Shown: piece by piece, positions 17,870 through 30,702 of the stretch
Numbering within the stretch: position 1 is the stretch's first letter
Layout of the letters: the number at the start of each line of letters is the position of its first letter
Notes under the pieces: generated by a model
Seen by the model: only the letters and a program-made list of their open reading frames with translations
Database searches by the model: none
Told to the model about the DNA's origin: nothing
Sequence record: MZ501109
Source of the DNA: Escherichia phage TrudiRoth
Length of the DNA stretch: 64,000 nucleotides
Reading direction: 5' to 3' (one strand)
Translations under genes and position numbers: made by a program

Positions 17870-17895
17870 ATTTTATTAACTGCTAGGAAAATAAA

Positions 17896-18096: not shown

Positions 18097-18107
18097 TAAG
18101 GAAATAT

Positions 18108-19052
18108 ATGTTTACTAAAAACACTAAAGAACTGACTTCCGATCAAAAAGTAATTCGTACTATTAAACGTTGGGGCGTTGGTGCTGTAGTTGGTCTTGGC
18201 GCTCTTATTCTGGCTCTCAATTCCTATACAGTTGTTCAGGACGGTACGGTTAAAACTCAGACTTTCCTGGGTAAAGTTAGTCCTAATCCTGTATTGCCGG
18301 GGTTCCATATTGTCAACCCATTCGCCTCTTTTGATACTTTTAGTACGAAAGATATTTCTATGAAACTGGATAAACTTCAGGTTCCTAGCCAGGATAAGTT
18401 TAAGTCCACTGTTGACATTACCGTTATGTTGCAGTTTGATGGTGCTAAAGCTCCTATGAACCGTGTTAACGCAGGTACTCAGGATCAAGCTCTGAACAAG
18501 TACGTTGAAGAGAAGATGCTATCTACGATTCGTGAGTTTGGTAAGTCTGTACCAAAAGCACAAGATCTGTTCGACGCTAAGATTCAGGCTCAACTGCAAA
18601 CTGCTATTCAGCAAGAAGTAGAAGAGTACGCGCGTCCTTATGGTTACACGGTTAAGCAAGTATTCCTTCAGGATATTACTCTGCCACCTGTAATCATGGA
18701 ACAGGTACAAAACACAAAAGTTCGTGAAGAACAAGTTAACGCCGCTAAAGCTGAATTGGCTCGTGTTGAACAAGAAGCACAGCAGAAAGTTAAGCAAGCT
18801 GAAGCTGATCGTTCTGCTCGTGAAAACATGGCAGTAGCTAACGAACGTGACGCAGATGCTAAACTGTACGCAGCTAAGAAAGAAGCTGAAGCTAACGCCG
18901 CGCTGCAACGTACCATTACTCCTGAAATGATTCGTTGGAAGCAGCTGGAAGTTGAAATGCTTCGTGCTGAAAAATACCAAGGTGGTGTACCGCAGACTGT
19001 TGTTGGTACTGGCTACGATGGTCAAATGATCATGGATATGCGTAACAAGTAA
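18108..19052 (+). CDS. SPFH/band-7 (prohibitin/HflK-like) membrane protein
   Basis: N-terminal TM segment, SPFH core and long Ala/Glu/Gln-rich coiled coil; strong terminator follows. Confidence 0.75.
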   Translation: MFTKNTKELTSDQKVIRTIKRWGVGAVVGLGALILALNSYTVVQDGTVKTQTFLGKVSPNPVLPGFHIVNPFASFDTFSTKDISMKLDKLQVPSQDKFKSTVDITVMLQFDGAKAPMNRVNAGTQDQALNKYVEEKMLSTIREFGKSVPKAQDLFDAKIQAQLQTAIQQEVEEYARPYGYTVKQVFLQDITLPPVIMEQVQNTKVREEQVNAAKAELARVEQEAQQKVKQAEADRSARENMAVANERDADAKLYAAKKEAEANAALQRTITPEMIRWKQLEVEMLRAEKYQGGVPQTVVGTGYDGQMIMDMRNK

Positions 19053-19075
19053 TAGTTACACGTAATCTTCGAACC

Positions 19076-19110
19076 AAGCCCGCGTTTCCTCTGAGAGCGC
19101 GGGCTTTTCT
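19076..19110 (+). terminator. rho-independent terminator after the SPFH gene
   Basis: 9-bp stem AAGCCCGCG/CGCGGGCUU then UUUU. Confidence 0.75.
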
Positions 19111-19255
19111 GTATTTAAGGCAAAAGAAAAGCCCATAAGTTATTCAACTAAGGTCTTTAGTATTTAATTCTTTAGAATCATATACTATTATTTCAGCAAC
19201 AACGTGCTGCCCTTAAGTGCCCTGCGATTTTCCTCTAAAAAGTTAAAAAATTCGA

Positions 19256-19284
19256 TTGCTTGAATGCTAAATTCTCTGTATAAT
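19256..19284 (+). promoter_or_regulatory. sigma70-type early promoter
   Basis: -35 TTGCTT, 17 bp, -10 TATAAT upstream of nadR. Confidence 0.65.
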
Positions 19285-19314
19285 ATATTTATAAATTTGA
19301 GAGAGGAATCAAAT

Positions 19315-20370
19315 ATGATTAAGACTGGTCTAGTAATTGGTAAGTTCGCACCATTAACACGTGGTCATATTAACCTAATAAACACAGCAGCAACTATGTG
19401 TGAACGAGTTATAGTTGTAGTTAGTCATGATAATCGCTGGCTGGATAAACAAAACACACGTGATCAGGAAGTCTTACAGTTAAAGAACCGACTTCGTTGG
19501 TTAGAACAAACTTACGCGGATATTGAGCACATTTCGGTAGAGTACATTATTGAAGATGATATTCCTGAATATCCGAATGGTTGGCCGGAATATGCTAGAA
19601 TACTTAATGAAAATTATGGACATTTGCCTGAGATCACCATTTTCTCTAGCGAACTAGACTATGATGCAGAATATAAGAAATATCTGCCGAAGTTTGGTCA
19701 TTATATTGTAGATTCTGATCGGACTCGTGTTCCAATCTCAGCTACAATGATTCGTAATGATCTTATGAAGTATTGGGAGTTTCTTCCTAGCGTAGTTCGT
19801 AAAGATTACGTGCGTAAGGTTGTAATCATTGGGACTGAAAGCTCGGGAAAGACTACTTTAACAAAATACCTTGCGAAGCTATACAACACTTCGTGGGTAG
19901 AAGAATATGGTCGAACGTATTGTGAAGTTGATCTAGTTGGTAACGAAAATCTGCTTACCAGCGAAGATTATAGTAAAATTGCGTTCAGACACAAAGAGCT
20001 AGAGTTTGAAGCAGAACGTACTGCAAATAAGATCATGTTTGTGGATACAAATGCTTTTATTACTGAGTTCTACCACAGACTTTATGAACATAGTAAGAAT
20101 CCTGTGGTTACAGCAATTGCAAAAGAAGAACATTATGATTTAGTAATTGTTCTAGCGCCTACTGTCAAGTGGGTAGATGATGGTTTACGTATTAACTCCG
20201 ATCGTTCAATTACTTCTGAACTGTTCGAGCAGATGAAGAAAGAATTTCCAAATCAGTTCCCTGAAGGGCGTACTGTTTACATCGACTCTCCGGACTACAA
20301 AGTTCGTATGGACGAAGCAGTAAACGCAGTAGACTGGCTGATTCATCACTTTAACGTTGGAGAGTTTTAA
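19315..20370 (+). CDS. nadR: NadR-like bifunctional NMN adenylyltransferase / ribosylnicotinamide kinase
   Basis: Nucleotidyltransferase motif GKFAPLTRGHINLI and P-loop kinase domain GTESSGKTTL; ATG 19315 after promoter 19256-19284. Confidence 0.75.
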   Translation: MIKTGLVIGKFAPLTRGHINLINTAATMCERVIVVVSHDNRWLDKQNTRDQEVLQLKNRLRWLEQTYADIEHISVEYIIEDDIPEYPNGWPEYARILNENYGHLPEITIFSSELDYDAEYKKYLPKFGHYIVDSDRTRVPISATMIRNDLMKYWEFLPSVVRKDYVRKVVIIGTESSGKTTLTKYLAKLYNTSWVEEYGRTYCEVDLVGNENLLTSEDYSKIAFRHKELEFEAERTANKIMFVDTNAFITEFYHRLYEHSKNPVVTAIAKEEHYDLVIVLAPTVKWVDDGLRINSDRSITSELFEQMKKEFPNQFPEGRTVYIDSPDYKVRMDEAVNAVDWLIHHFNVGEF

Positions 20371-20371
20371 T

Positions 20372-21049
20372 ATGACTAACTATCTCGTAAATGACTTTAA
20401 AAACTGGAAACCTCTGGAATATCTGTGGCTGTTCATAGCGGTTGTCTTCATTAGTTTAGCAAACTATAATGGTACAGCTCTAGATTGGGCTACTGCAATA
20501 ACCAATGTGGTTTGTGTTATTCTGGTTGCAAAAGGACGTGTTTCCAACTATATTTGGGGCTTAGTGGGTGTTCTTACATATGGTATTACAGCTTTAAACG
20601 CAGATCTTTATGGTAACGCTGCACTAAACCTGCTATACTACGTTCCTATGCAGTTTTATGGAATGTACTTATGGCATAAAAATAAGCCAAGTAATCTGCC
20701 GGATGTTCCAACTAAGGTTCTGACTAAAGCCCAAGCTCTGCTGACTCTAGGGATTCTAGCAGTAGCCACGTTAGGGTATGGTAGTTTCTTAGCTACTACG
20801 GCTGATCCATTTCCAATGTTGGATGCATTTACTGCGGTAGGTAGTGTGATCGCTATGTGGCTTATGGTTAAGCAGTATGCCGAGCAGTGGCTGATCTGGA
20901 TTGCTATTAACATTGGTACTGTGTACATTTGGCTTGTAACTGCTCAATCTACAGGTGCATCTTATGCAATCCTAGCAATGTGGCTAGTATTCTTAGGTAA
21001 CTCTATTATGGGAGCCTATAAAGGATACTTTGTACGCGTTAACAAATAA
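20372..21049 (+). CDS. pnuC: nicotinamide riboside transporter PnuC
   Basis: About 7 TM segments, PnuC-like WxxxY-rich profile; overlaps nadR stop; ORF opens at TTG 20357. Confidence 0.75.
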   Translation: MTNYLVNDFKNWKPLEYLWLFIAVVFISLANYNGTALDWATAITNVVCVILVAKGRVSNYIWGLVGVLTYGITALNADLYGNAALNLLYYVPMQFYGMYLWHKNKPSNLPDVPTKVLTKAQALLTLGILAVATLGYGSFLATTADPFPMLDAFTAVGSVIAMWLMVKQYAEQWLIWIAINIGTVYIWLVTAQSTGASYAILAMWLVFLGNSIMGAYKGYFVRVNK

Positions 21050-21058
21050 AGTAGTTAT

Positions 21059-21082
21059 AGCCCTCGCTTAGAGGGCTATTAT
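21059..21082 (+). terminator. terminator-like hairpin after pnuC
   Basis: AGCCCUC-GCUUA-GAGGGCU followed by AUUAUA. Confidence 0.5.
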
Positions 21083-21096
21083 ACAGAAATTTTCAC

Positions 21097-21125
21097 TTGC
21101 TTAATATAGAAAATTTCTGTATAAT
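21097..21125 (+). promoter_or_regulatory. sigma70-type early promoter
   Basis: -35 TTGCTT, 17 bp, -10 TATAAT. Confidence 0.65.
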
Positions 21126-21155
21126 ATATTTATAAATTTGAGAGAGGAATCAAAT

Positions 21156-21452
21156 ATGAAACGCATTGTACTTGCATTGACTCTAGTATCTACTTCTGTA
21201 TTTGCTGCTCCACAACAGGAACTTTGTCAAGTTCAAGTTTGTAATAAGCTAGAACGATTTACTCTAGACATTTGGTCACATATTAAAGATAATATGGGTG
21301 AACAGTGTTTTGATATTGTTCTGCCAAAAGAACAAGCTGTTCCTGGTGCTGTTCTCAGTTCAGAATCACGTTGGTGGCAGGGTTCTTCTATCAATCCAAC
21401 TAAGAAGTCAGTGACACGTATCAAACAAGTATATCAGTGCAATGTTCAGTAA
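21156..21452 (+). CDS. secreted small protein
   Basis: Signal peptide MKRIVLALTLVSTSVFAAP and six Cys. Confidence 0.5.
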   Translation: MKRIVLALTLVSTSVFAAPQQELCQVQVCNKLERFTLDIWSHIKDNMGEQCFDIVLPKEQAVPGAVLSSESRWWQGSSINPTKKSVTRIKQVYQCNVQ

Positions 21453-21460
21453 AATTTCAC

Positions 21461-21489
21461 TTGCTTAATGCCGAAATTTTCTGTATAAT
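21461..21489 (+). promoter_or_regulatory. sigma70-type early promoter (tRNA-Ser/tRNA-Met unit)
   Basis: -35 TTGCTT, 17 bp, -10 TATAAT directly upstream of the tRNA at 21504. Confidence 0.65.
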
Positions 21490-21503
21490 ATATTCATAAT
21501 TTC

Positions 21504-21597
21504 GGAAGATTAACCCTAAAGGTAAGGGAGCTGTTTGCTAAACAGCTAGTAGCTGTGGAAACACGGTGTGCCAGTTCGAGTCTGGCATCTTCCTCCA
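21504..21597 (+). tRNA. tRNA-Ser (anticodon GCU)
   Basis: Acceptor GGAAGAU/AUCUUCC, anticodon stem GCUGU/ACAGC with loop UUGCUAA, long variable arm, T-arm GCCAG-UUCGAGU-CUGGC, CCA. Confidence 0.75.
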
Positions 21598-21602
21598 AAT
21601 TT

Positions 21603-21680
21603 GGTTCTCAAGCTCATTTGGTATGAGCCGTCGCCTCATAAGCGAAAGGTAGGTAGGTTCGAATCCTCCGGGAGCCACCA
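21603..21680 (+). tRNA. tRNA-Met/Ile2 (anticodon CAU)
   Basis: D-stem GCUC/GAGC, anticodon loop CUCAUAA, T-loop UUCGAAU, CCA. Confidence 0.65.
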
Positions 21681-21697
21681 ATTAACTAGGAGACGAT

Positions 21698-21883
21698 ATG
21701 TCTAAGTTTCAGGAATTGAAGCAGGAACTAGAAGAGTGTGCCTGCCCAAAATGCTTCGGAGCAGGTGAATGGAACGATGCTGAACCTGGTGATACATGGT
21801 ATAATACATACGTTTGTACACATTGTAATGGTTCTGGTATTAATCCTGAATGCGGTATTTCTCTAGGTATTGAGCGAGGCTAA
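21698..21883 (+). CDS. zinc-ribbon protein
   Basis: 61 aa with CACPKC...CTHCNGSG. Confidence 0.45.
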   Translation: MSKFQELKQELEECACPKCFGAGEWNDAEPGDTWYNTYVCTHCNGSGINPECGISLGIERG

Positions 21884-22217
21884 GATGGATATTTACACTA
21901 CACCAGCAGTAAACCTGATTGGCTCTTGCCTTGTGCATTTCCGCTTCTTCCAAACGGATGATAGCAAAGAGGAGTATACCTATCCTCTGATGGATTTTCA
22001 GATTGAGGACTTCTTCCGTGAAGTGCGTAATATCTCTGAGAACTTCTATTATGGCATGGATAAGGAAGACTTTGACATTGAGTTCCCTATAATCTCTCGT
22101 TATTTCCTAGAGCAGTCCGACGCTCGGTTTGAGAAGATTGAACACATGGAAGTAGCCTGGGCTATCCAGTTCGAAATTACTGGCTTTGCTCGATACATTC
22201 AAGGTTACGAACTATGA
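21870..22217 (+). CDS. hypothetical protein
   Basis: 115-aa ORF overlapping the previous stop. Confidence 0.45.
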   Translation: MSEAKMDIYTTPAVNLIGSCLVHFRFFQTDDSKEEYTYPLMDFQIEDFFREVRNISENFYYGMDKEDFDIEFPIISRYFLEQSDARFEKIEHMEVAWAIQFEITGFARYIQGYEL

Positions 22218-22309
22218 AATTAAAAGATTATTATATTGGTTGGTTTGTAGGACTAATAGTAGGATTTTCACTGGGCTACAACTTGTATCAACTGATAAAC
22301 TGATTACAT

Positions 22310-22386
22310 GGGGGTGTAATCGAATTGGCATAGGTACTGGACTTAAAATTCAGGTTTTGTGGGTTCGAATCCCACCACCCCTACCA
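22310..22386 (+). tRNA. tRNA with anticodon UAA (Leu?), class I geometry
   Basis: Acceptor GGGGGUG/CACCCCU, anticodon stem CUGGA/UUCAG with loop CUUAAAA, T-arm GUGGG-UUCGAAU-CCCAC, A73, CCA; D-arm poorly paired. Confidence 0.45.
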
Positions 22387-22537
22387 AATTAAGGAAATAA
22401 AATGAAAGCTATTAAGAAAGCACTGCGTAAATTTATGTATTGTCGTTTTCATAGCATCAAGGCTTCAACTAATGGTACTACTTACGATCGCTATGATCCT
22501 AAGTTTGGCTTACATTCTAAATAACTGGAGAAAACAA

Positions 22538-22744
22538 ATGGCTAATCCTGAAATTACGGCACAACGCTTTATGCTGAAAGGAATTATTGCTGAAGCAGGC
22601 ATGACAGAAGAAGTTGCAGATTTTCAAAAGCAATTCCTCAATATTCTCACTCAAGCCAAAGAGCTAGGAGAGAAAGAACATGGCGCGGCTATTATGGCAA
22701 TCACATTGGTTGGGCTTGATCTGGCTGAAGAATCAGGAGTTTAA
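22538..22744 (+). CDS. hypothetical protein
   Basis: ORF opens at 22472; ATG 22538 has RBS GGAG. Confidence 0.4.
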   Translation: MANPEITAQRFMLKGIIAEAGMTEEVADFQKQFLNILTQAKELGEKEHGAAIMAITLVGLDLAEESGV

Positions 22745-22774
22745 CTCCTCCAAGCAGAAATTTTAAAAATGTAC

Positions 22775-22804
22775 TTGCTTTTTACTTAAGATTTCTGCTA
22801 TAAT
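22775..22804 (+). promoter_or_regulatory. sigma70-type early promoter
   Basis: -35 TTGCTT, 18 bp, -10 TATAAT. Confidence 0.6.
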
Positions 22805-22833
22805 AGTTATATAAGTTGATGAGAGGAATCAGA

Positions 22834-23100
22834 ATGTTAAAACGTTTTGCAGCAACTGGTATTGAAAGCTCAGTATGTAAATCCTGGGGTGGTTGGGAAG
22901 GTGAGATCGAGTGGCTTTATTTCTACAATGTAGAACTTCTTCCAGAGATCAAAGCTCAATGTATTGAGGCTGGTATGGCTCCTGATGCTACGGCTGATGT
23001 TGAAATCAGCATGAATAAGCTAGAGGGTCGAGTAGTCACTGTTACTGATGAAGGTGAAGAGGTATTCGAACTTCCATTCACTTTGAAAGTCACTCCTTAA
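22834..23100 (+). CDS. hypothetical protein
   Basis: 88 aa behind promoter 22775-22804 and the conserved leader GATGAGAGGAATCA. Confidence 0.5.
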   Translation: MLKRFAATGIESSVCKSWGGWEGEIEWLYFYNVELLPEIKAQCIEAGMAPDATADVEISMNKLEGRVVTVTDEGEEVFELPFTLKVTP

Positions 23101-23145
23101 TTTGATTAACTGATACAGCACTGAGCAAGTTCTTTAAAATTTGAC

Positions 23146-23174
23146 TTGCTCAGTCCTTCAAAACTTGATATAAT
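23146..23174 (+). promoter_or_regulatory. sigma70-type early promoter (tRNA cluster)
   Basis: -35 TTGCTC, 17 bp, -10 TATAAT; -35 lies inside a 10-bp inverted repeat. Confidence 0.55.
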
Positions 23175-23238
23175 AGTTATCTAATTTGGAAAACATATTT
23201 AAAAGTGTTTAAACTAGTATTTGAATATTTCTAAATAT

Positions 23239-23329
23239 GTTGGATTAGTATCGTAGAGGTAGCGAAGCAGACTGTAAATCTGCCGACTCGGAAGGGTCTC
23301 GGGTGGTTCGACTCCATCATCCAACACCA
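23239..23329 (+). tRNA. tRNA-Tyr (anticodon GUA)
   Basis: Acceptor GUUGGAU/AUCCAAC, anticodon stem GCAGA/UCUGC with loop CUGUAAA, long variable arm, CCA. Confidence 0.75.
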
Positions 23330-23336
23330 AATTTAA

Positions 23337-23413
23337 GTCCTGTTAGACAAACTGGTAAAGTCACTACCCTTTCAAGGTAGGATTTGCGGGTTCGATCCCC
23401 GCACAGGACGCCA
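23337..23413 (+). tRNA. tRNA-Glu (anticodon UUC)
   Basis: Acceptor GUCCUGU/ACAGGAC, anticodon stem CUACC/GGUAG with loop CUUUCAA, T-arm GCGGG-UUCGAUC-CCCGC, CCA. Confidence 0.75.
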
Positions 23414-23421
23414 ATTTCTGC

Positions 23422-23498
23422 ATTCCTAGAGTGTTACTGGACAGCATGTCGGTCTCCAAAACCGTACGGTCTAGGTTCGAGTCCTAGTAGGTTTGCCA
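23422..23498 (+). tRNA. tRNA-like, anticodon CCA (Trp?), poorly paired
   Basis: T-arm CUAGG-UUCGAGU-CCUAG and CCA end are good; anticodon loop CUCCAAA; acceptor and D stems have mismatches. Confidence 0.3.
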
Positions 23499-23504
23499 AT
23501 ATTT

Positions 23505-23579
23505 GCACCTTTAGCTGAGATGGATTAGCGCTTGCCTGAAGAGCTTGAGAGGTTCGTTCGATACGAACAGGGTGCACCA
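23505..23579 (+). tRNA. tRNA-like, anticodon GAA (Phe?)
   Basis: Acceptor GCACCUU/AGGGUGC, T-arm GUUCG-UUCGAUA-CGAAC, CCA; anticodon loop CUGAAGA with two U-U mismatches in the stem. Confidence 0.4.
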
Positions 23580-23596
23580 ATTTGAAGGAGATGCTG

Positions 23597-23869
23597 ATGC
23601 ATCCTGAAAACTTCTTTATTTACTGTGCGGATAAGTCACTGAAACGCAGAATTAACAAAGTCTATCATTATCGTGCTAGTCAACAGCCTTATGTTTATGC
23701 TTTTGATGGAGATTACATCCCACTAGAACAGTTGGCCTGTGATTACATGGTTTTGAAGAACTTTGACGAGACAAAGATCTCAAGCGTTCATAATCGACAG
23801 AACCCGTTAACGTGGAAATATAAGAAGAAAAAGAAAGGCATCAAATTCTTAAAAAATGTAGTTGCTTAA
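23597..23869 (+). CDS. hypothetical protein
   Basis: RBS GAAGGAG then ATG 23597; ORF opens at 23582. Confidence 0.45.
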   Translation: MHPENFFIYCADKSLKRRINKVYHYRASQQPYVYAFDGDYIPLEQLACDYMVLKNFDETKISSVHNRQNPLTWKYKKKKKGIKFLKNVVA

Positions 23870-23890
23870 CCGCTTAAAGTTCTGTATAAT
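23862..23890 (+). promoter_or_regulatory. sigma70-type early promoter
   Basis: -35 TTGCTT, 17 bp, -10 TATAAT. Confidence 0.65.
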
Positions 23891-23919
23891 TATTACATAA
23901 ATTGAACTGGAGAAGCAAC

Positions 23920-24144
23920 ATGACAGAACAAGAATTGAAAGAACGTAAGCTGGTAATGCTTCGCTTACTAAACATTTTCTCTGGTATGGATGGTGGTATT
24001 GACTTCATTCAACTACGCACTTTTGTAGAAGAAGCAGAAGGCGAGGCTATCACTAGGATTCTTAAACATATGGGTTTGTTACTAGATGCTGCTAATGTGG
24101 CTACTCAATATAAACTCGAAGATTTACCGGAGCGTGTTAAATGA
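23920..24144 (+). CDS. hypothetical protein
   Basis: ATG 23920 behind promoter 23862-23890. Confidence 0.45.
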   Translation: MTEQELKERKLVMLRLLNIFSGMDGGIDFIQLRTFVEEAEGEAITRILKHMGLLLDAANVATQYKLEDLPERVK

Positions 24145-24332
24145 AAATGTTAGTTAAATTTAAGTGTTGTGGTTCTGAACATATTTTCACTCGTTATAGA
24201 GAGTTTAAGATGTGTGAGTGCGGTAAATCAGGCTACGATGCTGGAGATGGCTATTATGCTAGATCTATAGGACATTCTAAAGATCTAGAGTTTACTAATC
24301 TCGAAAAGCAAGATAAATCGACCGTTGGCTGA
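24141..24332 (+). CDS. zinc-ribbon protein
   Basis: 63 aa with CCGSEH...CECG; its stop overlaps the 5' end of a tRNA. Confidence 0.4.
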   Translation: MKMLVKFKCCGSEHIFTRYREFKMCECGKSGYDAGDGYYARSIGHSKDLEFTNLEKQDKSTVG

Positions 24333-24394
24333 ATGGCTTAGGCGGAGGCCTGCAAAACCTCCTTATGTGAGTTCGAATCTCATGCGGTCGTCCA
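24319..24394 (+). tRNA. tRNA-Cys (anticodon GCA)
   Basis: Acceptor CGACCGU/GCGGUCG, anticodon loop CUGCAAA, T-arm GUGAG-UUCGAAU-CUCAU, CCA; 5' end overlaps the stop of ORF 24141..24332. Confidence 0.5.
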
Positions 24395-24401
24395 AATTTT
24401 A

Positions 24402-24484
24402 GGGTCGTTAGCCAAGCGGTTTGGCGGTGGACTGTTAATCCATGTCGAAAGACAACGTAGGTTCGAATCCTACACGGCCCGCCA
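24402..24484 (+). tRNA. tRNA-Asn (anticodon GUU) with 13-nt variable region
   Basis: Acceptor GGGUCGU/ACGGCCC, D-stem GCCA/UGGC, anticodon loop CUGUUAA, variable GUCGAAAGACAAC, T-arm GUAGG-UUCGAAU-CCUAC, CCA. Confidence 0.5.
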
Positions 24485-24587
24485 TATTCTGTGTAGAGTT
24501 AAGTAAACCGGTAGCCAACCAGCTATCATTGCTGATATCGAATTCAGTCACAGATACCATTTTTCATTAACAACTGAGGAAATAGAT

Positions 24588-24773
24588 ATGACAACTCGTG
24601 CAATTGCTCGACTAGAAGCTGATCGTGATAATCTGATTAATAATATTAAGGTTCGTGGTAATATTATTAAGGCTCTGAAAGCTGAACTTCTTGAAGAACT
24701 TCAAGGTCAAGTAGAGCGTCGTGAAGCTCTAAAAGAGGTTGAGGAAGCTATCGAAAAACTCAAAACTGAGTAA
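24588..24773 (+). CDS. hypothetical coiled-coil protein
   Basis: 61-aa ORF. Confidence 0.4.
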   Translation: MTTRAIARLEADRDNLINNIKVRGNIIKALKAELLEELQGQVERREALKEVEEAIEKLKTE

Positions 24774-24776
24774 ATT

Positions 24777-25358
24777 ATGCACGGAATATCCTTACCCATT
24801 CCAGGGTTTGAGGAGTACTTAGTAAGTTTGGATGGGTTAGTATTTAGTATCAAATCAAACAAAATACTAACCCAAATAACCAGTAATTACGGATACTTAT
24901 CTATACGTCTCCATAAAAATGGTCAACAGAGAAATACCGGTGTACATAGGATTTTAGCATGTGCATTTAAGAAATTACCAAGTCTAGACTCTGAACTAGA
25001 AGTTGACCATATTAACACAGACATTACTTATTGGGGTCTTAATAACTTACAAGTGCTCACAAAAGAGCAGCATCTAGAAAAGACTTTAAAAGATAAAGGA
25101 TTTAGTAAACTAAACCATGATAATTGTTGTAAGGATTGTGGTAAAGCTATTTCTTTAAAAGCTGAAAAATGTCAGGAGTGCTCTTCACATAAACCAAAAG
25201 ATATCTCTATAACTAAAGAAATAATCGAGGTTACAGTAAGAGAGCTAGGCTGGTCAGGTGCAGGGAGAAAGTTAAGTTATTCAGATAATGGGTTGCGTAA
25301 AAGATACACTTCTTTAGGAGGCAATCCTAAAGAACTTAAAAAGTTAAAGGTACTATAG
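24777..25358 (+). CDS. HNH homing endonuclease (second family)
   Basis: N-terminal GFEEYLVSLDGLVFS, HNH core HRILACAF...VDHINTD...NL and C-terminal Cys cluster; sits inside the tRNA array. Confidence 0.65.
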   Translation: MHGISLPIPGFEEYLVSLDGLVFSIKSNKILTQITSNYGYLSIRLHKNGQQRNTGVHRILACAFKKLPSLDSELEVDHINTDITYWGLNNLQVLTKEQHLEKTLKDKGFSKLNHDNCCKDCGKAISLKAEKCQECSSHKPKDISITKEIIEVTVRELGWSGAGRKLSYSDNGLRKRYTSLGGNPKELKKLKVL

Positions 25359-25423
25359 TCTAACGGTTAGGATACTCCCCTGTCACGGGAGAGGTAGGGT
25401 TTCGATTACCCTTAGTACCGCCA
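25349..25423 (+). tRNA. tRNA-Asp (anticodon GUC)
   Basis: Acceptor GGUACUA/UAGUACC, anticodon stem CUCCC/GGGAG with loop CUGUCAC, T-arm AGGGU-UUCGAUU-ACCCU, CCA; 5' end overlaps the HNH gene stop. Confidence 0.75.
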
Positions 25424-25429
25424 AATTAT

Positions 25430-25506
25430 ACATCCATAGCTCAATTGGTTAGAGCTACCGCCTCTTAAGCGGTAGGTTCTAGGTTCAAGTCCTAGTGGGT
25501 GTACCA
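25430..25506 (+). tRNA. tRNA-Lys (anticodon CUU)
   Basis: Acceptor ACAUCCA/UGGGUGU, D-stem GCUC/GAGC, anticodon stem ACCGC/GCGGU with loop CUCUUAA, T-arm CUAGG-UUCAAGU-CCUAG, CCA. Confidence 0.75.
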
Positions 25507-25719
25507 AACATCAGAGCAGCGTGATGTACTGCAAAGACCCAAAGTCCGGGGTGGACTTCTTGATTCAAAGGAGCAGGCACTAATTATCATTCTAGCGTGG
25601 TGGAGAGGGGACACCAGCTTGCCGAGGGTAGAAGCTCGTTCGATTCGAGTGAAAGAATGGTTCTCGTAAATCCGCACAAGTGATAGCAGGTTCAAGTCCT
25701 GCCTAGATTGACTTATTAT

Positions 25720-25793
25720 GCGTTCGTAGTTAAAAGGTATAATTTTTGGTTGCCAACCAGAAGTTGAGGGTTCGATTCCCTCCGACCGCACCA
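25720..25793 (+). tRNA. tRNA-Gly (anticodon GCC)
   Basis: Acceptor GCGUUCG/CGACCGC (one mismatch), D-stem GUUA/UAAU, anticodon loop UUGCCAA, T-arm GAGGG-UUCGAUU-CCCUC, CCA. Confidence 0.7.
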
Positions 25794-26102
25794 AATCTAT
25801 CAAACCAAGCCTGCGCATTCGTGTAACAACTTGTGCGTCTGTAAGGTGATAGTAAACAAGCCACGGAGTTCCGGCCGTTCAACGTGGTAAAATCTTCTGA
25901 ATAACAGGTCGTGGATACCTCTTTGGAGGCTCAACGGAAACGCAGGAGTGTAAGTAAACGAAAGTTTACTTATTATGTAGGTTCCGATAGATCGGCGGGT
26001 CTATTCTGGCATTTAAGAGAAGTCTCGCAAACTTCTTTGTCAGCCGTGGGGTTGGTAGCCTCCAGGTGGCCTACACAATAAGTAAATTTATTAAAAATTA
26101 AT

Positions 26103-26131
26103 TTGCTATTCTGCTTAATTATCTGTATAAT
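26103..26131 (+). promoter_or_regulatory. sigma70-type early promoter
   Basis: -35 TTGCTA, 17 bp, -10 TATAAT. Confidence 0.6.
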
Positions 26132-26165
26132 ATATTTTATAAAGTGAATAGAAGGAAGTTAACAA

Positions 26166-26405
26166 ATGAAAAAATATTCAGAAGAATTTCTAGAAGATAT
26201 GGATTTACATTACCTGTTAACTTTGGTTTTAGAAGAAAAAATCTATGACCAATTTGATCTAGAAGGTCTTACAAAAGTAGATTGTATTCGTGCCCTTCTC
26301 ACTGTTGAAACTCGCTATTTCGAATGTCAACAGTGTGGTGAAGTTAATGAGTGCTCTTGGGAATGTCCAGAGTGTGGATATGACGATCTGCTTGAAACAG
26401 AATAA
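26166..26405 (+). CDS. zinc-ribbon protein
   Basis: 79 aa with CQQCG...CPECG; flanked by two near-identical tRNA-Lys(CUU) cores. Confidence 0.5.
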   Translation: MKKYSEEFLEDMDLHYLLTLVLEEKIYDQFDLEGLTKVDCIRALLTVETRYFECQQCGEVNECSWECPECGYDDLLETE

Positions 26406-26408
26406 TAT

Positions 26409-26485
26409 CTCCGATTAGCTCAATTGGTTAGAGCTACCGCCTCTTAAGCGGTAGGTTCTAGGTTCAAGTCCTTCATTGGAGACCA
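26409..26485 (+). tRNA. tRNA-Lys (anticodon CUU)-like second copy with degenerate T-stem
   Basis: 58-nt core identical to the tRNA at 25430-25506, but T-stem 3' strand is CCUUC (3 bp only) and the acceptor differs; CCA present. Confidence 0.45.
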
Positions 26486-26491
26486 AACAAT

Positions 26492-26569
26492 TGCGGGTTA
26501 GATCTTTGGTAGAGATCGCTAGTCTCATAAGCTAGAAAGAGGTAGGTTCGATTCCTGCACCCGCTTCCA
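26492..26569 (+). tRNA. tRNA-Met/Ile2 (anticodon CAU), unpaired 1-72
   Basis: D-stem GAUC/GAUC, anticodon stem CUAGU/GCUAG with loop CUCAUAA, T-arm GUAGG-UUCGAUU-CCUGC, U1-U72 mismatch, CCA. Confidence 0.65.
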
Positions 26570-26590
26570 ATTTAATAGAAGGATTTCGAA

Positions 26591-26755
26591 ATGAAATTAT
26601 TTCGTTTAAAAGTAAGTGATTTACGTTCTAGCAAAGATCGTAAGAAGTATCCACTAGCCCATTACGGTAAAGATGAAAACGAAGTGATGGCGGAATTTGG
26701 TATTAATCACCCTTACTTAAAAGTTTATTCTATTAAGGAAGTCTATGCTAATTAA
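26591..26755 (+). CDS. small hypothetical protein
   Basis: 54-aa ORF (below the track cutoff) translated by hand; RBS AAGGA. Confidence 0.3.
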   Translation: MKLFRLKVSDLRSSKDRKKYPLAHYGKDENEVMAEFGINHPYLKVYSIKEVYAN

Positions 26756-27218
26756 TAAAGTTTTAGCTGCCTTAAACCTTCCTGATAACTTCATTATAGA
26801 TGATAAGCTCATAAGAGCTTATATGAGCAAATATAACGAAATTTCAGGTAAAGAAGGTAAGTTAAAAACTTCAGAGTTTAGATTCTGTTATCGAATGGCA
26901 GCCTTAAATCTCTTAAAATATAAAAGGGAGCATAAAATACCTATAACGGAAGGTTTTGTATATGTAATTGGTAATCCAGCATGGCCAGGCATGTATAAAA
27001 TAGGTATGACTATAGATGTGAATGAGAGGTTAACAAGTTATCAAACTTATTCACCTAATAGAGACTACAAGCTATACCATTTCAGATTTTCGTCGGATAA
27101 AAGACGTACAGAGAAAGAATTACATAATCTTCTTAAAGATTATAGAGTATCTGGAGAATGGTTTGAAGTACCTGTACTAGATGCTTTTAAATTATTAGTA
27201 GAAAAATTGGATTGCTAG
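26745..27218 (+). CDS. T5orf172-domain (GIY-YIG superfamily) protein
   Basis: GFVYVIGNPAWPGMYKIGMTIDVNERL matches the GIY..YIG..R pattern. Confidence 0.65.
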   Translation: MLINKVLAALNLPDNFIIDDKLIRAYMSKYNEISGKEGKLKTSEFRFCYRMAALNLLKYKREHKIPITEGFVYVIGNPAWPGMYKIGMTIDVNERLTSYQTYSPNRDYKLYHFRFSSDKRRTEKELHNLLKDYRVSGEWFEVPVLDAFKLLVEKLDC

Positions 27219-27286
27219 CTCAACTGGATAAGAGTAGCGGACCTTTAATCCGTCAGTTCTGGGTTCGAATCCCAGGCAATCCACCA
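27209..27286 (+). tRNA. tRNA-Lys (anticodon UUU) with C at position 33
   Basis: Acceptor GGAUUGC/GCAAUCC, anticodon stem GCGGA/UCCGU with loop CCUUUAA, T-arm CUGGG-UUCGAAU-CCCAG, CCA; 5' end overlaps the T5orf172 gene stop. Confidence 0.7.
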
Positions 27287-27290
27287 AATT

Positions 27291-27364
27291 GCTCGGTTAG
27301 TTTAATGGGAGAACCCCGTCTTTACACGGCGGTTGCGATAGTTCGATTCTATCACCGAGTACCA
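27291..27364 (+). tRNA. tRNA-Val (anticodon UAC)
   Basis: Acceptor GCUCGGU/ACCGAGU, D-stem GUUU/GAAC, anticodon stem CCGUC/GGCGG with loop UUUACAC, T-arm GAUAG-UUCGAUU-CUAUC, CCA. Confidence 0.75.
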
Positions 27365-27382
27365 CTCAACTAAAATAAGGAA

Positions 27383-27625
27383 TTGCAAATGCAATTATCA
27401 TCTAAAGTTCAAGGTTTCTTCGCACATGCAACAGCAGAATTTGCTATTAGCAAGGGTTGGGATTTTGAGCAAGAACTTTCTGAGTTCTATAAAGATATAG
27501 ATATGAATACGCCATACATGGGACTCTCCACTGGTCAAGAGATCACAGAAGGCGATGTGTTCAAGGCAAGTCAAGGTGAGGTAACACCTAGTTTTGCCGC
27601 TTTTTTGGAGTGGCTTCACAATTAA
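27383..27625 (+). CDS. hypothetical protein
   Basis: 80-aa ORF with RBS AAGGAA. Confidence 0.45.
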   Translation: MQMQLSSKVQGFFAHATAEFAISKGWDFEQELSEFYKDIDMNTPYMGLSTGQEITEGDVFKASQGEVTPSFAAFLEWLHN

Positions 27626-27734
27626 AGAAGAAGCTCCAGATGATGATGTATTTATGCAAAGCATGCACTCTGGGAGTTCTGATATGTTATTTGTTAAAGA
27701 TGTACGACATATCCAAGAAGTGGTAAAAACGCAG

Positions 27735-27763
27735 TTGCTTAATGCTTAATTTCTTGTTATAAT
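27735..27763 (+). promoter_or_regulatory. sigma70-type early promoter driving an ORF-free leader
   Basis: -35 TTGCTT, 17 bp, -10 TATAAT; about 320 nt without an ORF before the next tRNA. Confidence 0.6.
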
Positions 27764-28097
27764 ATTTATATAAATTGATGCGAAAATAGCTGCCTAGATA
27801 CCAGGTGTATGACGTCTACACTAGCAGAGCTACCGAAAAAGAGATCCTCAGGATAAACGTCGTAGCAAAATTAGTCTGGTATCCATTAATTTAGTTCACT
27901 AAGGTATTAGCTCGACCTAGGACTGGCTGCCAAAAAGCACGATCCCTACGATTTGGGAGAAGTTCTAGATTAGTCCACTAGATTCAGCGGCAACTGAATA
28001 GTGTATCGGGTTTGTGAAGAGCAGCTATTCTCTACTGGCTAATGTCTGAGGTTAGTACGCACACCGAGCTAATAGCCTTAGTAAACTTAAAGAATTT

Positions 28098-28173
28098 GGG
28101 CGAATAGTGTCAGCGGGAGCACACCAGACTTGCAAGTCTGGTAGGGAGGGTTCGAGTCTCTCTTTGTCCACCA
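28098..28173 (+). tRNA. tRNA, isotype unresolved (Ala-UGC or Cys-GCA)
   Basis: Acceptor GGGCGAA/UUUGUCC, D-stem GUGU/ACAC, T-arm GAGGG-UUCGAGU-CUCUC, CCA; perfect anticodon stem CAGAC/GUCUG encloses only 6 nt (UUGCAA). Confidence 0.45.
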
Positions 28174-28188
28174 AATTAAAAAGAATGC

Positions 28189-28265
28189 GCGCGATTGACG
28201 GAATAGGTATACGTGTCAGCCTTAGAAGTTGAATTTTGAGGGTTCGAATCCCTTGTCGCGCACCA
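28189..28265 (+). tRNA. tRNA with anticodon UAG (Leu?), class I geometry
   Basis: Acceptor GCGCGAU/GUCGCGC, anticodon stem UCAGC/GUUGA with loop CUUAGAA, 5-nt variable loop, T-arm GAGGG-UUCGAAU-CCCUU, A73, CCA. Confidence 0.5.
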
Positions 28266-28390
28266 AATTTGATGGTCAGAGTAAATTAAACCTACTATCT
28301 CGGTTGAGCTGTTTTAATGGATTCGAATCCCAGCGAGGCGTAACTGCCTGGCGTGATAGAGGCATCATTCCACTAACATTGGAAAAACTA

Positions 28391-28621
28391 ATGAAACGAA
28401 AATTAAAAAAGTCTTATATAATTAAGATAAATAAGCTACGAAGTAGGGCAAAAGGATGGCCACTTCGAATATTAATTGCGGATAACCATATTAGATACCA
28501 TGCGGAACAACATCATTACAAACAGTGGGAGTCATACTGTCGCTCAAAAGCAGGTCGTTTAGATGGATCTTATGAGCTTCTATTTGGTAAGAAGCCTACT
28601 AGATTAGCTTTAGGTAAGTAA
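28391..28621 (+). CDS. small basic protein
   Basis: First in-frame ATG of track ORF 28229..28621; the upstream part overlaps a tRNA. Confidence 0.35.
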   Translation: MKRKLKKSYIIKINKLRSRAKGWPLRILIADNHIRYHAEQHHYKQWESYCRSKAGRLDGSYELLFGKKPTRLALGK

Positions 28622-28626
28622 TACTT

Positions 28627-28720
28627 GGAAAAGCAAATAGACTGGCGACTAAACCCGATTGGAAATCGGTTGAGTAATAGCAATATTGCCTTATGGGTTC
28701 AACTCCCATCTTTTCCGCCA
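28627..28720 (+). tRNA. tRNA-Ser (anticodon GGA)
   Basis: Acceptor GGAAAAG/CUUUUCC, anticodon loop UUGGAAA, long variable arm with GCAAUAUUGC hairpin, T-arm AUGGG-UUCAACU-CCCAU, G73, CCA. Confidence 0.7.
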
Positions 28721-28735
28721 AATATTGGAGTATAG

Positions 28736-29251
28736 ATGCTAACACAACAAGAATTAAAATCCGTGTTGTTATATAAACCAGATACTGGAGAGTTTTTCTG
28801 GAAATATAGATCTGATTTAGATAGTCAATGGAATAGTAAATATGCTGGAACTAGGGCAGGATTTATTAATGAACTAGGCTATTGGAAGATAACTCTAGGA
28901 AATACTAGCTGGTTAGCACATCGTCTAGCATTCTTATACATGACTGGGGAAATACCAGATCTAATTGACCACAAGGATCAAGATAAGTCCAATACTAAAT
29001 GGGATAACTTACGAATAGCCACTGTATCACAGAATCAGGCTAATGCTAAATTAAGGGTAGATAATACCTCTGGGTACAAAAATGTAACTTGGCATAAGCA
29101 AAGAAATAAGTGGAAAGTAGAAGTACGTAAAGATGGCAAACTCCATTATGGTGGACTTTTTACAGAACTAGATAAAGCTGTAAATAAAGCTAATAATCTT
29201 AGACGTGAGTTATTCGGGGAATTTGCAGTATATGAAGAGTTTATGGGGTAG
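28736..29251 (+). CDS. HNH homing endonuclease with AP2-like domain
   Basis: Shares AHRLAFLYMTGE, DHKDQDK, NLR and GYKNV motifs with 6460, 39902 and 42058. Confidence 0.7.
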   Translation: MLTQQELKSVLLYKPDTGEFFWKYRSDLDSQWNSKYAGTRAGFINELGYWKITLGNTSWLAHRLAFLYMTGEIPDLIDHKDQDKSNTKWDNLRIATVSQNQANAKLRVDNTSGYKNVTWHKQRNKWKVEVRKDGKLHYGGLFTELDKAVNKANNLRRELFGEFAVYEEFMG

Positions 29252-29341
29252 GTCAATCCAACGGCTGGCGCTGGACTCCGACTTGAAATCGGTTGATCGT
29301 AGTGATACGGTGTAAGGGTTCGATCCCCTTACCTACCTCCA
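29247..29341 (+). tRNA. tRNA-Ser (anticodon UGA)
   Basis: Acceptor GGUAGGU/ACCUACC, anticodon loop CUUGAAA, long variable arm, T-arm AAGGG-UUCGAUC-CCCUU, CCA; 5' end overlaps the HNH gene stop. Confidence 0.7.
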
Positions 29342-29361
29342 ATTAACTATAAGGAATCCTT

Positions 29362-29535
29362 ATGAGCAAAACAGCTACTGTAACAATGAAGGATGGTACA
29401 AAATTTAAAGCATGTCTTCATGAAACAGATAATGGATGGAAGGCTTATTTGCCACACCTAGATTCCACTGGGTATGGAATGACCCAACGTGAAGCTATTG
29501 TTGATGCTTTAAATGAGGCTTCCGCTGGTTTATAA
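29362..29535 (+). CDS. small hypothetical protein
   Basis: 57-aa ORF translated by hand; RBS AAGGAA. Confidence 0.35.
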   Translation: MSKTATVTMKDGTKFKACLHETDNGWKAYLPHLDSTGYGMTQREAIVDALNEASAGL

Positions 29536-29794
29536 AAATTCTTGGAATATGCCGGAATTGGTAGACGGGACTGCCGAATAGGTTTACTAGGAACATCCAC
29601 TCCTAGAAATATACCTTAAAAGCGGTTGAGTTAAATGGTATAACTCATGAAGGTTCAAGTCCTTCTATTCCTTGATACATCAATGGCTCAAAGTGTAACG
29701 GTGCTATTTGATGCTCTTGGCAAGACTTCCCCGACATGCGTTCGGGAGTAAGCTGCTAAGACTAGAGTAGAAGAGTTTCAACAAGACAACGATA

Positions 29795-29869
29795 GCTCTT
29801 AAAGCATTGCTGGCGATGCAGTTGCCTTGTAAGCATCTGAACCGGGTTCGATTCCTAGTGGGAGCACCA
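29795..29869 (+). tRNA. tRNA-Thr (anticodon UGU)
   Basis: Acceptor GCUCUUA/UGGGAGC (two G-U pairs), D-stem GCAU/AUGC, anticodon loop CUUGUAA, T-loop UUCGAUU, CCA. Confidence 0.65.
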
Positions 29870-29885
29870 AAATTAAAAAATTCAT

Positions 29886-29914
29886 TTGCCTTCTCTCTTA
29901 TTTCTTGTTATTAT
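29886..29914 (+). promoter_or_regulatory. sigma70-type early promoter
   Basis: -35 TTGCCT, 17 bp, -10 TATTAT. Confidence 0.5.
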
Positions 29915-29944
29915 ATTTATATAAATTAATGAGAGGGAAACCAA

Positions 29945-30238
29945 ATGAAACGTTATCTTTCTGTTATGTTCCAAACTGGTGGTCAACGCTATACTTATGA
30001 ATTTCCATCTTCTTGGAAGATCAAAGAAGGTGATCAAGTAGTAGTGTTAACACCGCGTGATGGTTTCAAGGTAGTAACGGTTAAGCAAGTATTTCCAAAA
30101 GATCACGAACCATCTAAGGCTATTCAGTACAAGATGATTCATGGTCTGGTACGAAAAGTACCTAGAACAGAAGTCGAAGTAGATAAAACTGGGGAAGCTA
30201 AATACCAGTATACCTCTTACTTAGACGAGTTGTTATAA
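29945..30238 (+). CDS. hypothetical protein
   Basis: 97 aa behind promoter 29886-29914. Confidence 0.5.
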   Translation: MKRYLSVMFQTGGQRYTYEFPSSWKIKEGDQVVVLTPRDGFKVVTVKQVFPKDHEPSKAIQYKMIHGLVRKVPRTEVEVDKTGEAKYQYTSYLDELL

Positions 30239-30444
30239 TGGGAATTACTTTCACAGAAAAGATTATGGGCAATGGTGTTATGATCATTACCGCATGGGAT
30301 GGTAATCAGTGGTGTAGTGTTTCAGGTATTAAGCCTGAAGAACAAACACTAGAAAATATCTCAAAGATTAAGCGAAGAATGGCAGAACGTGCACGACTTC
30401 CAGGTGCGCCTAGAAATGGTAAACGTTCTGCAATTAAATGTTAA
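30238..30444 (+). CDS. hypothetical protein
   Basis: 68 aa, start-coupled. Confidence 0.45.
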   Translation: MGITFTEKIMGNGVMIITAWDGNQWCSVSGIKPEEQTLENISKIKRRMAERARLPGAPRNGKRSAIKC

Positions 30445-30445
30445 T

Positions 30446-30522
30446 GCTTCGGTAGCTTAGCGATCTAAAGCACTCGGCTGATAACCGAGAGATCGGGGGT
30501 TTAAATCCCTCCCGGAGTACCA
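30446..30522 (+). tRNA. tRNA-Ile (anticodon GAU) with UUUAAAU T-loop
   Basis: Acceptor GCUUCGG/CCGGAGU, D-stem GCUU/AAGC, anticodon stem CUCGG/CCGAG with loop CUGAUAA, T-arm GGGGG-UUUAAAU-CCCUC, CCA. Confidence 0.7.
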
Positions 30523-30558
30523 AATTTAGGAAGTAAGACTATGCGTCCAGGAAAGTTT

Positions 30559-30572
30559 AAAAAAAAAAAAAA
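30559..30572 (+). repeat. A14 homopolymer tract
   Basis: 14 consecutive A between tRNA-Ile and the third CAU tRNA, inside a 15-codon ORF (MRPGKFKKKKKLIGL). Confidence 0.9.
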
Positions 30573-30626
30573 GCTAATTGGTCTAAAGAGTATAAAGAAT
30601 ATTTACTTAGTCTAGTAAAACATAAT

Positions 30627-30702
30627 AGTTAGTTGGCAGAGTGGTTATGCACCTCCTTCATACGGAGCGACTACAGTGGTTCAAATCCACTACTAACTAC
30701 CA
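30627..30702 (+). tRNA. tRNA-Met/Ile2 (anticodon CAU)
   Basis: Acceptor AGUUAGU/ACUAACU, anticodon loop UUCAUAC, T-arm AGUGG-UUCAAAU-CCACU, CCA. Confidence 0.7.

Follow-up and report, generated by a model that had tools for sequence, protein, structure and literature searches.

The DNA analysed here, a 64,000-nucleotide (nt) stretch of Escherichia phage TrudiRoth (MZ501109; hereafter the window), is the early part, rich in tRNA genes, of the genome of a T5-like phage (Demerecviridae, Markadamsvirinae), and ARAGORN located 23 transfer RNA (tRNA) genes between 17.8 and 30.7 kb of it. One of these, a tRNA-Lys(UUU) gene of 78 nt, encodes C in place of the near-universal U at tRNA position 33 (Table 1). 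The anticodon arm was placed identically by ARAGORN, Rfam, and RNAfold, which agreed on a stem of GCGGA (27237-27241) and UCCGU (27249-27253) and on a 7-nt loop of C32, C33, U34, U35, U36, A37, and A38 with the anticodon UUU, given by ARAGORN as ttt at tRNA position 36. A hand fold made in an earlier, sequence-only reading of the window had arrived at the same stem, loop, and C33, and in none of the three automated folds did a U stand at position 33, an outcome that had been named as able to overturn it.

The gene scored 59.9 bits against the Rfam family RF00005, for which the gathering score is 29, with an alignment mismatch lying exactly under the consensus U33, and its minimum free energy structure in RNAfold was a canonical cloverleaf (−25.5 kcal/mol, z = −2.27). 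The cloverleaf, the UUU anticodon within a 7-nt loop, the discriminator A73, and the 3′ CCA are those of the family, from which the gene departs at U33, the base present in all 22 of the remaining tRNAs of the window. A73 and UUU, which are identity elements for lysyl-tRNA synthetase (LysRS), are retained, and the D-loop reads AACUGG with C16, as in T5.

Table 1. Positions of the tRNA-Lys(UUU) gene, its anticodon arm, and associated features in the window.
Feature	Positions	Strand	Description	Basis
tRNA-Lys(UUU)	27209..27286	+	BF23/EPS7-type allele, encoded CCA, discriminator A73	ARAGORN, Rfam RF00005, RNAfold
Position 33 of tRNA-Lys	27243	+	C, 5′ of the wobble base	ARAGORN, Rfam, RNAfold
Anticodon stem-loop	27237..27253	+	GCGGA-CCUUUAA-UCCGU; U39, C40, C41 at the AriB cleavage site	
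157-aa ORF	26745..27218	+	GIY-YIG-like (T5orf172/MUG113), putative free-standing homing endonuclease	Pfam
54-aa ORF	26591..26755	+	conserved small ORF, phrog_6221, before tRNA-Lys in all T5-like phages	equivalents T5.065, BF23 ORF trn 2.12
tRNA-Met(CAU)	26492..26569	+	upstream neighbour, fMet equivalent in T5/BF23	ARAGORN, T5/BF23 comparison
tRNA-Val(UAC)	27291..27364	+	conserved block partner, 4 nt 3′ of tRNA-Lys	ARAGORN, Rfam
tRNA-Thr(UGU)	29795..29869	+	anticodon arm identical to that of T5, G39 at AriB site	
tRNA-Asn(GUU)	24402..24484	+	SP15-type allele	ARAGORN
aa, amino acids; ORF, open reading frame

Conservation of the C33 allele

The 78-nt gene was matched in 86 phage records, 76 of which were identical to it, and C33 was kept in both of the two non-identical carriers that were read (10 non-identical in all); when C33 was replaced by T in the query, no 100% match to this exact U33 version was found among 50,697 phage records. 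The carriers include BF23 (the tRNA-region record AJ604530 as well as the complete genome), EPS7, the Yersinia phage phiR2-01, the Citrobacter phage YZU-L1, and the BASEL phages IrmaTschudi (Bas28) and IrisVonRoten (Bas32), and the allele is found in both Tequintavirus and Epseptimavirus. In BF23 and IrisVonRoten the tRNA is 100% identical to that of the window, while the adjoining upstream 157-aa ORF has only ~77% nucleotide identity. Phage Elw has the same tRNA interior with another acceptor stem, two pairs of which are altered on both sides, and the Aeromonas T4-like phages phiAS4 and Riv-10 and one IMG/VR contig have an identical 17-nt anticodon arm, C33 included, in a tRNA-Lys(UUU) whose body differs from the window allele at ~20% of positions. 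The consensus fold of five diverged members contained 21 pairs, of which 6 had compensatory double changes and 0 were broken; the covariation extends to the acceptor stem, and the anticodon arm and C33 were invariant throughout.

According to the GenBank record of BF23, replacement of the anticodon by CUA turns this tRNA into an effective amber suppressor. For that, the derivative must be expressed, undergo processing and charging, and serve on the ribosome, a conclusion at the level of annotation, in which the retention of C33 in the derivative is left unstated. The gene is a functional phage tRNA of the BF23/EPS7 allele class, and the C33 tRNA-Lys is a real, conserved, and functional observation, on which no remark was found in the searchable literature for BF23/EPS7 tRNA-Lys, though the base is present in public records. 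Non-U33 tRNAs are pseudogenes in some cases, and one other tRNA of the window has a private 1-nt loop insertion, both of which would be in keeping with a sequencing error or a decaying pseudo-tRNA at 27209-27286 as well; this explanation is ruled out, its probability being negligible, by the 76 identical and independent records (some from as early as 2004), the high Rfam score, the covarying stems, and the suppressor annotation of BF23.

Among ~700 unique bystander tRNAs, taken from IMG/VR loci that had been fetched for other reasons, ~2.4% (17/700) were non-U33, and the probability of at least one such tRNA among 23 is ~0.43. One non-U33 tRNA in the window is, as a bare event, not beyond chance, and C33 is meaningful because it is conserved, not because it is rare. 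In IMG/VR, a scan with the pattern CCTTTAA set at the proper distance from a T-loop recovered at least 50 C33 tRNA-Lys(UUU) sequences that were distinct from one another and had a wide variety of stems.

Anticodon arms and the nucleases that target tRNA-Lys

PrrC-type nucleases and the PARIS effector AriB both target tRNA-Lys(UUU) (PMC11464382, PMC12409363, PMC11555353), and the tRNA-Lys of T5 neutralises PARIS (PMC11464382, PMC12409363), so that these two premises of the sequence-only reading are borne out by the literature. Within the anticodon stem, AriB cleaves between residues 40 and 41; of the T5 substitutions that confer resistance, U39A (Mut1) abolishes cleavage and A41C (Mut2) substantially inhibits it, and further determinants lie outside the anticodon arm, including U16-U17 of the D-loop (PMC12409363). 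The host tRNA-Thr(UGU) is a second prime target of AriB, and the host tRNA-Asn(GUU), cut at UAAUC/C, is a weaker, secondary one (PMC12409363). T5's own tRNA-Lys has the loop CUUUUAA, with U33, and the window tRNA-Lys retains U39 (27249) and has C41 (27251), so that the first of the two T5 changes is missing from it and the second present. On comparison of the alleles, position 33 is therefore not a known PARIS determinant, and the window allele has only the weaker of T5's two substitutions. Its AriB site, U36AAUCC41, is the same as that of E. coli tRNA-Asn(GUU), a tRNA still subject to weak cleavage by AriB. While the fold, the nuclease targets, and the general idea of a resistant phage tRNA in the earlier reading are sound or plausible, its PARIS rationale for position 33 is not: C33 as the T5/PARIS determinant is ruled out by the U33 of T5 and by resistance mapping to positions 39 and 41 and to elements outside the arm, and an altered loop is not the established signature of such tRNAs, given that the tRNA-Lys of both T5 and SP15 keeps the host-type loop.

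Across the T5-like phages, at least five different anticodon arms occupy the same tRNA-Lys slot (Table 2), and 5/5 of them differ from the host at positions 39-41. This divergence would be consistent with escape from stem-cutting nucleases, a reading of the arm variety that is weakened by the many other tRNAs of the region that likewise exist as divergent alleles. The allele of EscoHU1 and SuperGirl (Bas29) has C38 (EscoHU1 locus L128, 294-371; SuperGirl locus L131, 294-371), and the arm of SelmaRatti (Bas34) has U33, G39, and a C27-U43 mismatch (locus L448, 3867-3944). Bas34 is reported to be PARIS-sensitive, and the region of it that was examined is without a tRNA-Thr(UGU), as published. As a PARIS-sensitive phage with a tRNA-Lys(UUU), Bas34 was considered as a natural test of C33 and ruled out by its U33 allele.

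Table 2. Anticodon arms in the tRNA-Lys(UUU) slot of T5-like phages and in the host.
Source	5′ stem	Loop	3′ stem
T5	CUGGU	CUUUUAA	ACCAU
SP15	UCCGA	CUUUUAA	UCGGA
EscoHU1 / Bas29	CCGAG	CUUUUAC	CUCGU
BF23 / window	GCGGA	CCUUUAA	UCCGU
Bas34	CUUGC	CUUUUAA	GCAAU
Host E. coli	GUUGA	CUUUUAA	UCAAU

The same comparisons would allow the allele to have been selected for PARIS/AriB-type evasion through C41 of the stem and the AACUGG D-loop, with C33 incidental. The inhibitory effect of A41C, the determinants outside the anticodon arm, the T5-like C16, and the departure of all five T5-like alleles from the host at 39-41 argue for this, as do the tRNA-Thr(UGU) and tRNA-Asn(GUU) genes that the window phage also encodes, completing a PARIS-bypass set, and the fact that Bas33 and Bas34 are the only T5 relatives reported as PARIS-sensitive, the allele carriers Bas28 and Bas32 not being named. 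We nevertheless regard it as quite improbable, since the allele keeps U39, where a change abolishes cleavage, since the site UAAUCC is still cut in tRNA-Asn(GUU), and since selection on the stem leaves the invariance of C33 unexplained.

A PrrC-type nuclease offers a closer connection to position 33. The cut made by PrrC in tRNA-Lys falls between positions 33 and 34, and T5-like tRNA-Lys rescues phages from PrrC170, E. coli tRNA-Lys doing so poorly (PMC11555353). N6-threonylcarbamoyladenosine at position 37 (t6A37), for which U36-A37-A38 is a strict determinant, cannot be placed by E. coli TsaBCDE on tRNAiMet-U33C in vitro. Reviews report that t6A37 is a positive determinant of the PrrC of E. 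coli and of S. mutans, and our statements on PrrC substrates rest on these reviews, which cite the primary papers (Jiang 2002; Bacusmo 2017). The modification is also said to prevent U33-A37 pairing within the loop, a pair that is impossible with C33. Since C33 lies beside the scissile bond and has been published as an anti-determinant of t6A37, a PrrC-type rationale for it is plausible. In the mechanism that we favour, the phage tRNA-Lys would keep AAA/AAG decoding going once defence nucleases destroy the host's only tRNA-Lys; a stem unlike that of the host, with C41 at the AriB site, plausibly matters, and C33 most likely lowers PrrC-type cleavage at the 33-34 phosphodiester, whether directly, by altering the nucleotide 5′ of the scissile bond, or indirectly, by preventing t6A37 formation and removing a positive determinant of PrrC. 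Reduced PrrC-type cleavage by one or other of these routes is the best-supported specific mechanism for C33, and we put it forward tentatively. From this chain of literature, we infer that the window tRNA would be without t6A37 and that C33 would give nuclease resistance, and we predict that C33 tRNA-Lys would be unmodified at A37 in enterobacteria and a poor PrrC substrate.

Two further tRNA-Lys genes bear on this mechanism. The C38 of EscoHU1/Bas29 breaks the U36-A37-A38 motif and would give the slot a second t6A anti-determinant, distinct from C33, a hint of convergence. In lambdoid prophages of E. coli, for example PPompW, C33 recurs in an unrelated tRNA-Lys(UUU)-like gene (arm UCAAC-CCUUUAA-GUUGA, discriminator U73; locus L447, 3001-3076, PPompW_132418), which lies downstream of Q within a tRNA-Met, tRNA-Lys, and tRNA-Arg triplet and was matched in 798/5,426 complete E. 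coli genomes, a count that includes lower-identity matches and refers to the gene, not to C33; this too is a convergent hint. In its fullest form, the reading would be that phage tRNA-Lys evades PrrC-type nucleases by refusing a host modification, with C33 (BF23/EPS7) and C38 (EscoHU1/Bas29) each keeping A37 free of t6A, with C33 also removing the U33-A37 pairing, and with spread between T5-like and Aeromonas T4-like phages as a two-gene cassette together with a GIY-YIG-like ORF. We consider it rather unlikely that all of these parts hold together.

Several observations weigh against a role of C33 in evasion. The literature searched contained no experiment that employed a C33 tRNA-Lys, whether on cleavage or on modification, and CCTTTAA occurs in 0/11 of the tRNA-Lys constructs tested against PrrC170. 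The tRNA-Lys genes of SP15 and T5 evade PrrC170 and PARIS, respectively, with a host-type loop, so C33 is not needed for evasion. The yeast gamma-toxin, another anticodon nuclease, is unaffected by C33; a 2026 TsaBD-tRNA structure has no base-specific contact to U33, which is there called unrelated to t6A; and the U33C anti-determinant was shown on tRNAiMet only. In an IMG/VR scan that left position 33 free, C33 was present in ~5/~91 viral tRNA-Lys(UUU) among the matches listed, an enrichment (~6% vs ~2.4% non-U33 in other viral tRNAs) that is not significant among those matches (Fisher p = 0.16). Finally, the allele's physical linkage to a putative homing endonuclease could account for its spread without benefit at the RNA level.

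The C33 tRNA could alternatively be something other than mainly a decoder: it might titrate a tRNA nuclease as an uncleavable decoy, or its decoding properties might be altered. Work on PARIS specificity has raised the possibility that viral tRNAs, when overexpressed, inhibit competitively (PMC12409363), and the U-turn that gives the anticodon loop its shape includes U33. This is very unlikely in view of the reported effectiveness of an amber-suppressor derivative of the identical BF23 gene and of the acceptor-stem covariation and the A73 and UUU identity elements, which are kept; a tRNA-Lys(CUU) is also encoded, but it occurs in 189 T5-like records of every allele class.

The overlapping GIY-YIG-like ORF and the surrounding tRNA region

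The tRNA-Lys stands in a block whose order, tRNA-Met(fMet), 54-aa ORF, tRNA-Lys, tRNA-Val, is conserved. A 1.9-kb query around the site matched 428 phage records at 80-96% identity, mostly from Salmonella and Escherichia phages, and the tRNA-Val(UAC) is 97-100% identical in BF23, EPS7, and three other loci compared. The 157-aa ORF is inserted between the 54-aa ORF and tRNA-Lys in such a way that its final 10 nt, including the TAG stop, fall within the tRNA. It matches PF13455 (MUG113, 3.4e-18) and PF10544 (T5orf172, 6.5e-15) in Pfam, both of which we take to be branches of the GIY-YIG nuclease superfamily, and it has weak PHROG matches labelled homing endonuclease; the IrmaTschudi and JLBYU43 records call it a putative homing endonuclease or GIY-YIG nuclease. 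The same ORF-tRNA arrangement was found in five other ORF-bearing loci (BF23, EPS7, S114, phiR2-01, and IrisVonRoten), and the ORF is absent from the tRNA-Lys loci of T5, SP15, EscoHU1, SuperGirl, vaffelhjerte, and Elw, so that close relatives are polymorphic at this locus for the presence of the ORF. As to a co-conversion tract around the ORF, identity to three Epseptimavirus records is 99-100% across the ORF and tRNAs and 80-93% in the downstream flank, but in BF23 and IrisVonRoten the ORF drops to 77% beside a 100% identical tRNA. The Aeromonas phages have a homologue of the ORF (49% identity over 90 aa, E = 3e-29), which runs ~27 nt into their C33 tRNA-Lys at its 5′ end, as against 10 nt in the window (loci L122, 1138-1521, and L032, 3208-3798, minus strand). 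Because an overlapping homologue recurs there, the ORF and the C33 tRNA-Lys are a two-gene unit common to two phage families.

Because the GIY-YIG-like ORF overlaps the 5′ end of the tRNA in both families, hitch-hiking with a homing-endonuclease cassette is a serious explanation and the main rival to nuclease evasion. Under it, C33 would be a tolerated, near-neutral change or a DNA-level immunity polymorphism, and the ORF and tRNA-Lys would move together as a cassette by homing and co-conversion, much as T4 SegB reportedly moves by homing in the tRNA region of T-even phages. The distribution of the pair suits this, with its overlapping counterpart in Aeromonas Straboviridae, the U33 alleles at all of the ORF-less loci of T5, SP15, EscoHU1, SuperGirl, and vaffelhjerte, the crossing of the Tequintavirus/Epseptimavirus boundary, and a surrounding tRNA region that is mosaic, with many divergent tRNA alleles and several homing endonucleases; so do the functional tolerance of C33 by yeast tRNA-Leu(GAG) and the ~2% of viral tRNAs that are non-U33. 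The rival is harder to reconcile with phage Elw, which has the C33 arm without the ORF, and with the other C33 tRNA-Lys(UUU) of IMG/VR (at least 50) and the lambdoid prophage tRNA, which have no such ORF nearby. Among the relatives of the ORF that were found, only the close ones adjoin tRNA-Lys, and C33 and the whole arm stayed invariant as the ORF diverged, its nucleotide identity falling to 77% (and its amino acid identity to 49% in the Aeromonas phages), a contrast that looks like long-term constraint and not a recent sweep. On balance we hold the homing explanation to be possible but somewhat doubtful.

A wider association was considered and rejected: the T5orf172-like family as a general partner of tRNA-Lys is ruled out by the IMG/VR relatives of the ORF, 73/80 of whose loci are without a downstream tRNA. 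Two distant relatives (36-39% identity) on IMG/VR contigs of ~105-110 kb lie immediately upstream of genes for tRNA-Asn(GUU) whose loops are unusual, UUGUUAC with C38 (locus L378, 1935-2010) and CAGUUAA with A33 (locus L386, 1936-2010). Since the stop codon of the window ORF lies inside tRNA-Lys, RNase P processing of a common transcript would remove it, which could limit expression of the ORF. A scan for promoters and terminators around the tRNA block returned nothing above chance.

The tRNA region as a whole (17795-30702) is a mosaic of exchangeable alleles. The tRNA-Tyr is 71% identical to that of T5 vs 100% to that of SP15, and the tRNA-Asn 64% vs 100%; the tRNAs for Asp, Ser(GCU), and Leu(UAG) have diverged from both phages, and those for Glu, Phe, Thr, and Ile, together with two of the three tRNA-Met(CAU), are nearly invariant. 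A tRNA with alanine identity (G3:U70; 28098-28173, plus strand) has an 8-nt anticodon loop, CTTGCAAG, or alternatively a 6-bp stem with a 6-nt loop. A 75-nt version annotated as tRNA-Ala is present in 35 related phage records at 97.4% identity and 0 records are identical, so that only this genome carries the 1-nt insertion in the loop, for which a sequencing error, a pseudogene, or a frameshift-suppressor-like tRNA could account. The window also has two genes for tRNA-Lys(CUU), an isoacceptor missing from E. coli, at 25430-25506 and 26409-26485 (both plus strand). The copies are identical over positions 8-64, and one of them has a different acceptor stem and a T stem of only 3 bp; over positions 8-77, this variant is matched by phage beppo only, and it looks chimeric or partly duplicated. 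As a specific compensating companion of the C33 allele, tRNA-Lys(CUU) is ruled out by its occurrence across all allele classes.

Significance and comparison with known systems

Phage tRNAs are now recognised as counter-defences, and the host tRNA-Lys(UUU) is a target common to PrrC and PARIS, against which the resistance determinants proven so far are substitutions in the stem and body of the tRNA. If the proposal is true, a conserved change at position 33, at the PrrC scissile bond, would represent a different mechanism of evasion, through avoidance at the loop or of a modification, and would provide a simple sequence marker for which T5-like therapeutic phages bypass which tRNA nucleases. 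The allele is present in well-known laboratory phages (BF23, EPS7, Bas28, and Bas32) and is directly testable in them. That T5-like and Aeromonas T4-like phages have the ORF-tRNA cassette in common also suggests how counter-defence tRNAs may pass between phage families.

The 157-aa ORF resembles the free-standing homing endonucleases of phage tRNA clusters, of which T4 SegB is an example. With the GIY-YIG/HNH enzymes F-TflI, F-TflII, and F-TflIV (T5 record), it has in common a small nuclease-family ORF between tRNA genes and a presence/absence polymorphism; it differs from them in belonging to the T5orf172/MUG113 branch as a putative nuclease, in having its stop codon inside a tRNA, and in forming an ORF-tRNA pair that spans two phage families.

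The nearest counterpart of the tRNA is the T5 tRNA-Lys (Burman et al. 2024; Belukhina et al. 2025), which occupies the same slot between the fMet tRNA and small ORF on one side and tRNA-Val on the other, and which shares with the window allele the anticodon, the D-loop start AACUGG, and C41 at the AriB site. The two genes are 74% identical, T5 having U33 and A39 where the window has C33 and U39, and the proven determinants of the T5 tRNA are in the stem and body and not at position 33. The tRNA-Lys of SP15 and of other phages (Azam et al. 2024) is likewise a T5-like tRNA-Lys(UUU) in the same slot, faced with a PrrC that cuts beside position 33, but SP15 has the host-type loop CUUUUAA on a UCCGA/UCGGA stem, and the constructs tested were without C33. 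The closest precedent in concept is the set of anticodon-loop mutations in phage tRNAs predicted to block VapC, colicins, and other nucleases (van den Berg et al. 2023), where, as here, the phage tRNA differs from that of the host at or next to the cleavage site; in that work the coliphage tRNA-Lys(UUU) is an exception without a loop mutation, explained by RNA ligase repair, and C33 is unmentioned. Natural C33 tRNAs, namely the initiator tRNA-Met of multicellular eukaryotes and yeast tRNA-Leu(GAG), have the same base in an otherwise normal working tRNA, but they are eukaryotic, are of other isoacceptors, and have no link to a nuclease; C33 blocks t6A37 formation in bacteria and yeast, whereas the human and nematode enzymes tolerate it. 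A phage tRNA that replaces a nuclease-targeted host tRNA is of a known kind, and the C33 version is new within it.

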